Shown here piece by piece: positions 4,362-8,293 of a stretch of DNA of 64,000 bases. Numbering within the stretch: the stretch's first letter is position 1; each line of letters opens with the position of its first letter. The translations under genes and the position numbers were made by a program. Below the pieces are notes generated by a model, which was not told the origin of the DNA, ran no database searches, and saw only the letters and a list, made by a program, of their open reading frames with translations. The DNA is taken from assembly GCF_000026545.1 (NCBI RefSeq), contig NC_011601.1; one strand, 5' to 3'. This DNA comes from Escherichia coli O127:H6 str. E2348/69. Its GTDB lineage: Bacteria > Pseudomonadota > Gammaproteobacteria > Enterobacterales > Enterobacteriaceae.

Positions 4362-5318
4362 TTAAAGGGTTATCCATGTACCGCTCTGATGCGCCAGGGC
4401 TGCTTTTATGGTTTGCGGTGAAGTAATCAGGCCGCTGGCCTGTTTGCCTTGTTGCTGGCTGGCATTGATGAAATCAACAATGGCTTCCACTTTGGGTTGC
4501 ATACTGCCGACACCAAACTGACCTTCCCGCAACAGCGTTTGCGCTTCGGCAACGCTGATAGCGTCGAGCCACTGTTGTTGTGGTGTACCAAAGTTAATCG
4601 CCACTTTTTCTACACCGGTGGGGATCACCAGCAGATCTGCGCCTAATTGACTGGCGAGCAGCGCGGAGGCCAGATCTTTATCGATCACGGCTTCTACACC
4701 TTTCAGTTGTTGCCCGTCTCGCACCACCGGAATACCGCCGCCGCCGCAGGCAATAACCAGATATCCCTGGCGCACCAGGTGAGCGATGGTGTCGTGCTCA
4801 ATAATTTCCAGTGGTGCAGGAGAGGGAACTGTACGCCGCCAACCACGCCCGGCGTCCTCCATCAGCGTCCAGCCGAGTTGTTGTTGGCGTTGTTGGGCCG
4901 TTGCTTCATCGAGAAACGCGCCAATTGGTTTACTGGGGCTGGCGAAAGCATCGTCATGTGGGCTGACTCGCGTTTGTGTCACCAGGGCAATTACCGGTTT
5001 GTTTATGCCACGGCGAGCCAATTCGTTATGCAGCGCTTTCTGGAACATGTAGCCAATTGCACCTTGTGTATCACCCACGGCGTAATCAAGTGGAACCGGA
5101 GAAACTTCGTTACTGGCGAGTTCAGAGCGGCGCAGAATAAAGCCCACCTGCGGGCCATTACCGTGGGTTAGTACCAGGTCCCATCCGGCTTCAACCATAT
5201 CAACGATATGTTGCACGCTTTCCATCACTGCAACATATTGATCGGGAATACTATTGCGTTGCTCGTCCTGAATGAGCGCATTGCCGCCAACCGCGACGAC
5301 AGCCAGTGGCTTAACCAT
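4362..5318 (-). CDS. Carbamate kinase-like protein (amino-acid kinase family)
   Basis: Start set at internal ATG (5318) giving 318 aa beginning MVKPLAVVAVGGNAL (carbamate kinase N-terminal signature) with AGGAGA Shine-Dalgarno; the ATG overlaps the TAA stop of the upstream gene (ATGGTTAA), so translationally coupled. Confidence 0.8.
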   Translation of the reverse strand: MVKPLAVVAVGGNALIQDEQRNSIPDQYVAVMESVQHIVDMVEAGWDLVLTHGNGPQVGFILRRSELASNEVSPVPLDYAVGDTQGAIGYMFQKALHNELARRGINKPVIALVTQTRVSPHDDAFASPSKPIGAFLDEATAQQRQQQLGWTLMEDAGRGWRRTVPSPAPLEIIEHDTIAHLVRQGYLVIACGGGGIPVVRDGQQLKGVEAVIDKDLASALLASQLGADLLVIPTGVEKVAINFGTPQQQWLDAISVAEAQTLLREGQFGVGSMQPKVEAIVDFINASQQQGKQASGLITSPQTIKAALAHQSGTWITL

Positions 5319-5494
5319 GATGGTTCTCCTTTGCGACGATCTCCGCCAGTGCACGTACAGCGGCGACAAAACAGGCCATCGGCGCAGTGGTGATCCCGGC
5401 ACCAATTTGCCCGACCCCCGCTTGTTTGTGGGCGATACCCGTATTGATGACCGGTAAAATGCCGCGATCGGTCACTTTACGCGCATCAATCCCT
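5311..5494 (-). pseudogene. Orphaned 3' fragment (about 60 codons) of the IS-split DUF1116 gene
   Basis: Reading frame is continuous with the 5' part of the DUF1116 gene once the IS and one copy of the 8-bp repeat are removed; ends in a stop that overlaps the carbamate kinase start. Confidence 0.7.
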
Positions 5495-5502
5495 GCTGCG
5501 GT
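5495..5502. repeat. Left copy of 8-bp flanking direct repeat GCTGCGGT (target-site duplication)
   Basis: Identical octamer abuts both IS termini (5495-5502 and 7053-7060). Confidence 0.75.
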
Positions 5503-7052
5503 CTGTCTCTTATACACAAATCCCCACCCGGGGATTTGTGATGTCTGTCAGTCTGCTTTAGGGGGACTCTTTCCATCCGGTAGTTTCCTTCCTCCCCGGC
5601 AGCGATTTTTTGAACTTTTTCCTCACCCGTTGATCTTCTCTTATATTTCATTTTCTTCGGGTCTGTTATGGTACTTTCTGATTGTTATTCATGGGCTAAC
5701 GAGCAGTTTGGACATGCCCGTCTCGGTGATCCGCGTCGTACACGACGCCTTGTGTCACTGGCCTCTTCTCTCGCTCAGCATGCAGGTCTTTCTATTGTGA
5801 AATCATCCCAGTCCACTGCTCAGGTTGAAGGTGCGTACCGCCTGATACGTAACCCGTCTGTGTCCCCGCAAGCCATTGCCGAAGCCGGATTTACCGCCAC
5901 TGTAAGGGCATGTGAGGCTCATCCGCTGCTCCTCGCGCTGGAAGACACCACCACCATTAACTTCAGTCACAGTACGGCATCTGATGACCTGGGGAATACC
6001 ACCACTAACCCGAAGACGCGCGGGCTGCTGGCTCACTCTGTCCTGATGTACGCCCCCGACAGCGCCCTGCCAGTCGGTCTTATCGAACAGCAGCGCTGGA
6101 GTCGTGCCACGGACACCTACGGTGTTAAGCACCAGCGAAAAGAACGTCCCTATGAAGAAAAAGAAAGTTACCGCTGGCAGCAGGCTTCGGAGCGCATGGC
6201 CGAATGGCTGGGGGAGATACAGAAACGGGTAATCACTGTCTGTGACCGGGAAGCGGATATCTGGCATTACCTGCATTATAAAGTCAGCCACGGGCAGCGC
6301 TTCGTGGTGCGTGCAGCACAGAATCGCCGGCTGGAAGAAGCACCCGGCAAGCTCTTCGAACTGCCGGAAGTCCTGGCAACCGCGGGAAGCCACACGCTGA
6401 ATGTGATGCAAAAAGGCGGGCGGGCAGCCCGCCAGGCCCGGATGTTCATCAGTTACAGCGAAGTCAGCATAAAAAATCCCGACAACAGCGGCCAGGCGCT
6501 CCCGCTCACGTATGTCTGTTGCCGGGAGCAGGCAGAGGACGGCGCCTGCTGGCATCTGCTGACGTCAGAAAAAGTGGCGAGTGCCGCCGATGCGCGACGT
6601 ATCGTCAGCCATTACGAGCGACGCTGGCTGATAGAGGAATACCACAAGGCGTGGAAAAGTGGTGGTACATGTGTGGAATCGCTGCGAATGCAGACCCGGG
6701 ATAACCTCGAGCGCATGGTGGTTATCAAGGCGTTTATCGCGGTGCGGGTGCTGGGCCTGCGGCAGGGCGGTATCAGTGAAGAAACACAAAATGACAGCTG
6801 TGAGAAAATACTGACGCCGACAGAGTGGAAACTGCTGTGGGTTAAGCTGGAAGGAAAACCGCTTCCGTCACAGATGCCGACACTGAAATGGGCCTGTCTG
6901 AAACTGGCGAAACTGGGGCGATGGCATGACAGCAAACGCACCGGTCGCCCCGGTTGGGTAGTCATGTGGGATGGCTGGTTCAGACTTCAGGATATGGTTG
7001 AGGGTTACCTGGTGATGAAGTCTCTTGATCAGGAGATCTGATCAAGAGACAG
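5503..7052 (+). mobile_element. IS50-like insertion sequence (IS4 family), 1550 bp, with intact transposase
   Basis: Left terminus CTGTCTCTTATACACAAAT (Tn5 outside-end/mosaic-end-like) and right terminus identical to the IS50 inside end in inverse orientation (AGATCTGATCAAGAGACAG); encodes a Tn5 Tnp-like DDE transposase; flanked by 8-bp direct repeats. Confidence 0.85.
5668..7041 (+). CDS. IS50/Tn5-type DDE transposase (457 aa)
   Basis: Conserved blocks shared with Tn5 Tnp as recalled: LGDPRRT, AYRxIRNPxVS, VCDREADI, RFVVR, LLTSE, YxxRWxIEEFHKAWK(S/T)G, DNLERMV, SKRTG; stop codon lies inside the terminal inverted repeat as in IS50. Confidence 0.9.
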   Translation: MVLSDCYSWANEQFGHARLGDPRRTRRLVSLASSLAQHAGLSIVKSSQSTAQVEGAYRLIRNPSVSPQAIAEAGFTATVRACEAHPLLLALEDTTTINFSHSTASDDLGNTTTNPKTRGLLAHSVLMYAPDSALPVGLIEQQRWSRATDTYGVKHQRKERPYEEKESYRWQQASERMAEWLGEIQKRVITVCDREADIWHYLHYKVSHGQRFVVRAAQNRRLEEAPGKLFELPEVLATAGSHTLNVMQKGGRAARQARMFISYSEVSIKNPDNSGQALPLTYVCCREQAEDGACWHLLTSEKVASAADARRIVSHYERRWLIEEYHKAWKSGGTCVESLRMQTRDNLERMVVIKAFIAVRVLGLRQGGISEETQNDSCEKILTPTEWKLLWVKLEGKPLPSQMPTLKWACLKLAKLGRWHDSKRTGRPGWVVMWDGWFRLQDMVEGYLVMKSLDQEI

Positions 7053-7060
7053 GCTGCGGT
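7053..7060. repeat. Right copy of 8-bp flanking direct repeat GCTGCGGT
   Basis: Identical to 5495-5502. Confidence 0.75.
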
Positions 7061-8293
7061 GGGGGCAAAATTGAGGGCTGGAAGTGTAAATGCGGGGTTA
7101 CCGCCGAGGGTGATTGCTTGCATCCGACGGCTGTTATTGGTGGCATCGGCAGGGGTGCCTCCCACAAATTTGACGATCGCCGGAGACGACGCCATCGCGA
7201 AGCCACCCACACCTGCGGTTTCAGTAATTGCGCTATCACCCAGGTCAGCAGCAGCGTCGTCAACGCCAAATCCGGGGAAGAACAGACCTTCAACGGCATT
7301 GGCAGGAGCCTGGAACCAGCGATCGCCAGTACCGGAAAGCCGAATACCAAAATTCACCCCGTTACGCGCCATCACCGTAACCATTGAACTGAACGGTACA
7401 TTGGCGGCGGCATCCATCATTGCTTTACAGGCGGCCATCGACAGATTGAGGAAGAAGTGATCGTTACCGGTGATAAATGCCACGACGCGCTGGATATGTT
7501 CCTGTGGAAGAGAGCAGGCCAGCAATGCCGGGAGCAGGCGCTTAATCAGCAAACCGGTAGCGGCAGCATTGCGGTTATGAACTTCATCCCCCATATGCAG
7601 CGCCTGCGCCATTAATGGCTTGAGTTCCAGCTCGCCGTGTTGTGCGATTGCTGCTTTCATTGCCGGCGTCAGTTCATCGCGCATCCAGGCCAGACGATTG
7701 AGAACTTCATCGTTATTGGCGCCAAAACGGAGAACCTTACCCAGACCTTCATTGAAATTGCTAAAAGTACGGTGGCCGTTGGTTTTGTTTTCTACCACCC
7801 ATAACGGCATCGACGGGCTGATGATGCCTGCCATTGGGCCAACCGCGTGATAATGATGACAAGGGGCAAGGTCGATTTCGCCTGCGTTTATTTGGTTTTC
7901 AGCGTCTTGCTGGCTGGTGGCCCAACCTTCGTACAGCATGGCACCAATAATCGCCCCTTTTACCGGACCACACATCTCTTCCCAGGCAATCGGCGGGCCA
8001 GAGTGCAAAATACGTTTTTGTTCAGCCATTGCTGGAATGGCCTCTTTAGCGAGCATGACATCCACCAGCACGGGTTGTGCTTCGAGATAACGTGTCATGG
8101 CGATTTGGTTGGCATTTTCTACCAGGGGATGACGTAGCAACGATGCCAGATCCAATCCAGCGTCAATATCGCCTTGTGCTGGTGGCTGCCAGTTGAGTGC
8201 AATTGCGCTTCCCCCGGCATGTTGAATATTGTCAGCAAAACTGTGTAGTCCCGCGTTCACAACCTTCAAAGGCTGATTAAATAAGGTGTTCAT
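7053..8293 (-). pseudogene. DUF1116 protein (YahG/YlbE-like), 5' portion, interrupted by the IS50-like element
   Basis: Start ATG at 8293 overlaps the stop of the upstream FdrA-like gene (ATGA); the six-frame ORF runs on into the IS to 6980, so its last ~24 residues are IS-encoded; the reconstructed uninterrupted gene would be 474 aa. Confidence 0.75.

Follow-up and report, generated by a model that had tools for sequence, protein, structure and literature searches.

The locus considered here, at positions 5311-8293 of a 64-kb stretch of the chromosome of Escherichia coli O127:H6 str. E2348/69 (NC_011601.1; the whole stretch is referred to below as the window), raises the question of how a gene of the AllG family (formerly DUF1116) came to be split by an insertion sequence (IS), and what the split means for the gene and for the operon around it. 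With high confidence, we read the locus as a recent cut-and-paste insertion of the element ISEc13 into codon 414 of a 474-codon AllG-family gene, giving a null allele with probable polarity on the genes downstream. The event itself is ordinary and already known, as the pseudogene is annotated in RefSeq, and an IS insertion with truncation and probable polarity is a textbook case. The interval is found at 100.0% identity over its whole length in three assemblies of E2348/69, an enteropathogenic E. coli (EPEC) strain, and the window maps one-to-one onto NZ_LT827011.1, starting at position 4204443. For comparison with other strains, we surveyed 5,426 complete E. coli genomes.

The IS lies between two identical copies of the octamer GCTGCGGT, and the initial annotation had every coordinate of the element (5503-7052) and of the octamers (5495-5502 and 7053-7060) correct. 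The octamer has four occurrences in the whole window. Excision of the IS with one octamer in silico (5311-5502 joined to 7061-8293) leaves 1425 nt that read as 474 codons plus a stop in one frame, as had been proposed. Empty sites in other strains, read across the join in two genomes with an intact gene, have the sequence ...CCCTGCTGCGGTGGGGGC..., with one octamer, identity to the reconstruction across the join and collinear flanking genes. The reconstructed 1425 nt give a single ungapped match in about 1,550 of the 5,426 genomes, with 99.6-99.8% identity among the best matches listed, and the intact alleles differ from the reconstruction by 3-5 substitutions over the whole gene, with no gaps. 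The octamers had been taken for a duplication, and when the same junction was looked for without an IS in other genomes, a single octamer was found; the GCTGCGGT repeat is a true target-site duplication and not a chance repeat.

The length of the duplication is characteristic of the element. An exact 8-bp duplication borders nine of ten further ISEc13 copies, and most of nineteen more loci obtained via the transposase protein. IS50 duplicates 9 bp of its target, and ISEc13 is unlike it in duplicating 8. A hidden 9-bp duplication, obtained by shifting the IS boundary, was considered and rejected, as the flanks share exactly 8 bp and this length recurs at other copies; two apparent 9-bp duplications among the other ISEc13 copies are chance extensions.

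The element itself is complete. Other ISEc13 copies align over exactly positions 1-1550 of the interval at 99.8-100% identity, and hundreds of E. coli genomes and plasmids have copies with this identity that bear the label ISEc13. We take the name from the RefSeq/PGAP label “IS4-like element ISEc13 family transposase” on copies that are 100% identical, rather than from an ISfinder reference. The transposase gene is read in the opposite direction to the interrupted operon. Its product matches the NCBIfam IS4-family equivalog NF033590 with 511.6 bits (cut-off 160), and its residues 6-453 align to Tn5 transposase structures (1muh, 1mus, and 4dm0; E 7e-83). Like IS50/Tn5, ISEc13 thus has a DDE/YREK transposase in a single open reading frame (ORF), one that aligns with the Tn5 protein over almost its full length. 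Segments EDTT, VCDREAD, and YxxRWxIEExHKAWK, which we take to be the DDE and YREK motifs, are kept in the alignment of the two proteins. Unlike the Tn5 transposase, the ISEc13 protein has no Met at the position aligned with the start of the Tn5 inhibitor (Inh), and ISEc13 here is a solitary IS rather than part of a composite transposon.

Members of the IS50 subgroup are defined by a DDE triad with Y(2)R(3)E(6)K, ends of the form CW------Y---CA-A--W-, a length of 1350-1550 bp, and an 8-9 bp duplication (PMC2266710). The left end (CTGTCTCTTATACACAAATC) and the right end (CTGTCTCTTGATCAGATCTC) of ISEc13 both match this form at every specified position, and the length of 1550 bp and the 8-bp duplication lie within the subgroup ranges. 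Because size, ends, and duplication length all fit the subgroup, the label “IS50-like” in the initial annotation was correct; the Tn5 and IS4-family matches above agree with it, and it can now be refined to the named element ISEc13. With the RefSeq-labelled ISEc13 copies, the window copy shares the same ends and the same 8-bp duplication, and nothing of substance differs apart from one transposase variant described below. In the accessible literature, we found only passing mentions of ISEc13, in resistance-genomics papers.

Each end was found once in the window, where zero chance matches are expected, and a search for further ISEc13 ends across the same 64 kb found none. The right end presumably equals the inside end of IS50 over all 19 bp, both GATC (Dam) sites included, and the left end presumably differs from the IS50 outside end by no more than 2 nt. 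We further take the first 16 nt of the left end to be those of the Tn5 mosaic end, i.e., of the Nextera adapter (CTGTCTCTTATACACATCT). Because of this likeness, adapter trimmers may cut into genuine reads that cross an ISEc13 left end, and could thereby conceal these junctions in short-read assemblies. Directly inside the left inverted repeat is a perfect hairpin (Table 1); the segment 5503-5560 folds at -22.1 kcal/mol on the + strand and at -18.2 kcal/mol on the - strand (ViennaRNA). This putative structure precedes the transposase start and might keep read-through transcription from reaching the gene. No Rfam family reached its gathering threshold in a scan between 5200 and 7300.

Table 1. 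Coordinates of the ISEc13 insertion, the interrupted gene, and the neighbouring operon genes in the window.
Feature	Position	Strand	Basis or remark
ISEc13, complete insertion sequence, 1550 bp	5503-7052	+	IS4 family, IS50 subgroup; 100% identity over 1-1550 to RefSeq-labelled copies
Target-site duplication, left copy GCTGCGGT	5495-5502	.	single copy at empty sites
Target-site duplication, right copy GCTGCGGT	7053-7060	.	single copy at empty sites
Left terminal inverted repeat CTGTCTCTTATACACAAAT	5503-5521	+	unique in window; first 9 nt identical to right end
Right terminal inverted repeat CTGTCTCTTGATCAGATCT, read inward	7034-7052	-	unique in window; fits IS50-subgroup end consensus
11-bp perfect hairpin CACAAATCCCC-ACCC-GGGGATTTGTG	5515-5540	+	directly inside left inverted repeat, upstream of transposase start
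ISEc13 transposase gene, 457 aa, intact	5668-7041	+	NF033590 and Tn5 transposase alignment
Terminator-like hairpin with T5 run, inside IS, antisense to transposase gene	6405-6433	- (operon strand)	consensus scan; putative function
AllG-family gene, 5' part, 413 codons + 2 nt	7053-8293	-	RefSeq pseudogene, “missing C-terminus”
AllG-family gene, 3' part, 60 codons + stop, with motif GILPVINTGIAHKQAGVGQIGAG...ACF	5311-5494	-	in-silico excision, family alignments
Chimeric ORF, 437 aa	6980-8293	-	stop codon 6982-6980; 414 native + 23 IS-derived residues
Interrupted operon	2707-11478	-	RefSeq annotation and NCBIfam scans; accessory island adjoining ysgA-udp
Carbamate kinase gene (arcC)	4362-5318	-	RefSeq and TIGR00746
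Allophanate-hydrolase-related (C-terminal-like) protein gene	3956-4345	-	RefSeq
NCS1 permease gene	2707-3930	-	RefSeq
LysR gene (PunR/AllS-like regulator), after permease	1724-2629	-	RefSeq annotation

In RefSeq, the two halves of the gene are annotated as pseudogenes on either side of the ISEc13 transposase, one at 7052-8293 ([quoted passage not shown]) and the other at 5311-5538 (“missing N-terminus”). The chimeric 437-aa product described in the initial annotation is borne out: up to and including residue 414, this ORF has the sequence of the reconstructed protein, and its last 23 residues are encoded by the right end of the IS. The initial count of 24 IS-read residues is acceptable because codon 414 spans the junction (23 plus the junction codon). 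In addition, a predicted 68-codon ORF (5311-5517, - strand) begins with a GTG codon that lies within the IS left end, in the hairpin stem described above, and runs in frame into the orphaned 3' fragment.

The reconstructed protein covers the whole Pfam AllG model (PF06545; E 1.8e-98, residues 140-354, model 1-215 of 215), and its alignment to PDB 3clq spans residues 57-465 and is gapless at the 413/414 join. It aligns end to end with K-12 YahG (46% identity) and YlbE/AllG (49%). The alignment suggested as a check of the reconstruction was run, and the protein is collinear and full length against the roughly 1,550 intact alleles, YahG, YlbE, and 3clq. The initial comparison with K-12 YahG stood as far as size is concerned (474 vs. 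472 aa), but the protein is a paralogue at 46% identity rather than the YahG orthologue. An assignment as the yahG orthologue was rejected on this identity and on the different locus and neighbours; given only 46% identity to YahG and 49% to YlbE, we regard the gene as a third paralogue and not as yahG itself. The intact locus corresponds to genomic region GR 29 of strain BEN2908, whose 1425-bp ORF is 45.8% identical to YahG (PMC12928451).

The Pfam AllG domain (residues 140-354) ends before the insertion point, and the 60 residues lost beyond it align to ordered, highly conserved sequence of 3clq. They contain the motif GILPVINTGIAHKQAGVGQIGAG...ACF, which is conserved in YahG, YlbE, and 3clq. 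Because this conserved C-terminal motif is lost, the interrupted allele is very likely a loss-of-function allele, despite the Pfam domain upstream of the break.

The consequences for the surrounding genes depend on the organization of the operon, which extends on the minus strand to at least 2707 and runs from a cysteine hydrolase (BiuH/RutB-like) through a DUF2877 (AllH-like) protein, FdrA (8290-9849), the split AllG-family gene, carbamate kinase, and an allophanate-hydrolase-related protein to an NCS1 permease. Intergenic distances are -8 to +94 nt, and the reconstructed gene overlaps the arcC start by 8 nt (ATGGTTAA; gene end 5311, arcC start 5318), the overlap of its stop with the carbamate kinase start that had been pointed out initially. 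In NCBIfam scans, FdrA reaches 498 bits (cut-off 433) and the carbamate kinase 366 bits against TIGR00746 (cut-off 358), while the BiuH-like cysteine hydrolase, at 273 bits, is below its cut-off of 370. There is no NCBIfam model naming an AllG-family or DUF2877 protein, and the DUF2877 assignment is the RefSeq label alone.

The co-location of genes for FdrA, DUF1116, DUF2877, and carbamate kinase is as in AllFGH-type carbamoyltransferase plus carbamate kinase systems. In K-12, the same four families are clustered and closely spaced in fdrA-ylbE-ylbF-ybcF (allF-allG-allH-allK), a paralogous operon transcribed as one mRNA in which YbcF is a proven carbamate kinase (PMC9843812). Unlike in this K-12 operon, DUF2877 comes first in the E2348/69 operon, which adjoins ysgA-udp and whose AllG-family protein is only 49% identical to YlbE. 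The E2348/69 operon also has partners that the K-12 fdrA operon does not: the BiuH/RutB-like hydrolase, the allophanate-hydrolase-like protein, the NCS1 permease, and the LysR regulator. The order DUF2877, FdrA-like, DUF1116, carbamate kinase is instead that of the K-12 yahD-yahE-yahF-yahG-yahI-yahJ cluster, where YahG (472 aa) is the end-to-end counterpart of the reconstructed 474-aa protein, but the flanking genes differ and the relationship at 46% identity is again that of a paralogue, not an orthologue. By these comparisons, the operon is a third paralogue, within E. coli, of the system formed by FdrA/AllG/AllH and carbamate kinase. As it lies outside the all cluster and has other partner genes, it should be treated as a paralogous system rather than be assigned oxalurate as substrate or a place in the allantoin regulon, and the partner genes suggest ATP-yielding catabolism of some ureide or carbamoyl compound.

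The initial annotation had left two alternatives for the downstream genes, namely polarity, or transcription from an outward-reading promoter in the IS end. Translation of the interrupted gene now stops prematurely at 6980, which leaves about 1.66 kb untranslated ahead of arcC. Within the IS, a GC-rich hairpin (6433-6415; -16.9 kcal/mol) on the operon strand, which is antisense to the transposase gene, is followed by UUUUU and resembles a terminator. A strict consensus scan of 5200-7300 found no sigma-70-like promoter. With the threshold relaxed to 8 or more of 12 matches, none was found either on the operon strand between 5720 and 5320, the stretch leading out through the IS left end; consensus scans of this kind are weak evidence, being insensitive to weak or non-sigma-70 promoters. 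Because both scans were empty, the outward promoter is without support. Given the untranslated stretch, the antisense hairpin, the empty promoter scans, and the co-transcription of the paralogous K-12 operon, polarity on the carbamate kinase, allophanate-hydrolase-related, and permease genes is plausible and would be the more likely of the two alternatives.

In the sequence of events that we propose, ISEc13, as a Tn5/IS50-type DDE element, would have transposed by cut-and-paste into codon 414 in the E2348/69 lineage. The gene offers a single match to the symmetric target of the element (see below), which is also the best match in about 62 kb, and ISEc13 would have entered there and made its usual 8-bp duplication. 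The protein would thereby have been cut after residue 414, gaining 23 unrelated residues and losing its conserved C-terminal motif, which would make the allele null. Because the neighbours of the gene in this tightly packed, K-12-like operon are fdrA and a carbamate kinase gene with which it overlaps translationally, a predicted FdrA/AllG/AllH-type carbamoyltransferase would most likely be disabled as well, and expression of the carbamate kinase, allophanate-hydrolase-related, and permease genes would probably be lowered.

Several points weigh against so severe an effect. The break leaves the Pfam AllG domain, which lies upstream of it, intact, and the truncated protein may conceivably keep some activity. 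In addition, a good Shine-Dalgarno sequence (AAGGAG) lies 5 nt before the ATG of arcC, which would be translatable if a transcript reaches it, and a weak or non-sigma-70 promoter could have been missed by the consensus scans. Outward promoters are present in the ends of some insertion sequences, and genes distal to Tn5 insertions have been reported to retain weak expression. Both the inactivation and the polarity are, moreover, predictions from sequence. These points would favor a functionally mild insertion, in which the chimeric protein still works or an outward or internal promoter keeps the downstream genes on, so that the operon is rewired rather than silenced. We consider such an outcome unlikely, though it deserves more weight than the other alternatives discussed below. 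The 60 residues lost hold the best-conserved motif across YahG, YlbE, and 3clq, no sigma-70-like site was found through the IS left end on the operon strand under either the strict or the relaxed scan, and a transcript of the operon would include, within the IS, a strong hairpin followed by a U-run. Null activity with probable polarity remains the preferred reading.

Why the gene was broken at this particular codon can be approached through the other ISEc13 sites, which share the dyad-symmetric context YCYCY | 8-bp duplication | RGRGR. The flanks compared in the window were 5487-5510 and 7045-7068. Without exception, 11 independent sites have C at both -4 and -2 and G at both +2 and +4. A weight matrix built from these 11 sites, with the window's own site left out, was used to rank 62,418 positions of the IS-free window (about 62 kb), and the real insertion site ranks first among them. 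Further, the reconstructed gene has a single match to the strict form CCCY-N8-RGGG, and this match is the insertion site itself. As a match to a profile derived from other loci, this is independent support, at the level of sequence, for a genuine ISEc13 transposition. Many ISEc13 sites resemble hairpins or terminators and lie in the gaps of convergent gene pairs (mog/satP, agp/yccJ, and ybaY/MGMT). Some sites carry the IS in opposite orientations in different strains (L004 vs. L018; L008 vs. L009 in our survey). The target consensus of Tn5 is weak, unlike the strong symmetric preference YCYCY-N8-RGRGR of ISEc13 sites. We tentatively propose, at somewhat less than even confidence, that ISEc13 has a strong dyad-symmetric specificity (5'-YCYCY | N8 | RGRGR-3') that mostly directs it into hairpin- or terminator-like intergenic sequences and would explain the choice of this codon.

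The insertion is young. It is present in three of the 5,426 complete-genome records, all of E2348/69, and in one further assembly outside that set (GCA_053076565.1). The intact gene is found in about 29% of the complete genomes, with some copies on plasmids (125 places). Neither half of the gene has acquired a frameshift or stop, and the window copy of ISEc13 shows no differences from the copy between mog and satP in the same genome. Two ISEc13 variants occur within the strain, differing at nt 703 (Arg180 or Trp180 in the transposase); the window copy carries T703 (R180W), which among the loci read was seen in the E2348/69 records, GCA_053076565.1, and one short Logan contig only. Because the gene halves are undecayed, the IS is identical to the mog-satP copy, and the insertion is restricted to E2348/69 among complete genomes, we regard it as recent, in agreement with the initial annotation. 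On these sequence comparisons, it is older than the divergence of the sequenced laboratory stocks and young on an evolutionary scale.

A recent loss in a pathogen might also have been selected, i.e., the catabolic operon might have been inactivated adaptively in the EPEC1 lineage. ISEc13 has matches at 27-30 places in E2348/69 chromosomes, compared with a median of one place in genomes with any match, and at least one other metabolic gene is also split: dgoD (galactonate dehydratase) is interrupted by a second ISEc13 copy with an exact 8-bp duplication (NZ_CP059840.2, 11451-13120; L005). The top-ranked target, however, explains the position of the break without invoking selection, and a single event at the best target in the region is what neutral, target-driven transposition would be expected to produce. 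Nor were independent inactivations seen among the surveyed genomes: 1,556 of the 1,558 genomes with a gene match have a place covering at least 80% of the gene, a count that includes the E2348/69 assemblies because their 5' part alone makes up 86.5% of the query. We therefore hold selected loss to be improbable, and prefer an unselected, target-driven insertion.

Two of the ISEc13 copies examined have no matching flanks (L007 and L021); the first is the pMAR2 copy between hok and finO (14967-16636), whose non-matching flanks suggest recombination between copies. Such inter-copy recombination notwithstanding, the idea that the octamers in the window are coincidental, or that the structure is an assembly or recombination artefact rather than a simple transposition, has next to no probability left and is refuted by the agreement of three separately accessioned E2348/69 assemblies (with one further assembly, L030, i.e., GCA_053076565.1, showing the identical structure) and by empty sites elsewhere with exactly one octamer and collinearity on both sides, the 8-bp length and the YCYCY/RGRGR context being in addition the signature of ISEc13.

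Elsewhere in the window, and unrelated to the insertion, RefSeq annotates a small “hypothetical protein” (47176-47342) between yihA and yihI and marks it as carrying a frameshift and an internal stop.

E2348/69 is the prototype EPEC strain, and the finding has little import beyond strain bookkeeping. Metabolic models and mutant screens of this strain should treat the accessory, presumably nitrogen-catabolic operon (FdrA, AllG-like, AllH-like, carbamate kinase) as non-functional and probably polar-silenced, and comparisons with B2 and extraintestinal pathogenic E. coli (ExPEC) strains that carry the intact locus should allow for the insertion. The locus is also a clean example of the expansion of ISEc13 in E2348/69, and offers a natural knock-out for assigning a substrate to an uncharacterised paralogue of the oxamate carbamoyltransferase system. 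The target preference of ISEc13 is the sole by-product of this analysis that may be new. If it is true and not already recorded, ISEc13 would be a natural Tn5-like transposase with a much tighter target choice than Tn5, which could aid the understanding or engineering of target capture by Tn5-type transpososomes.

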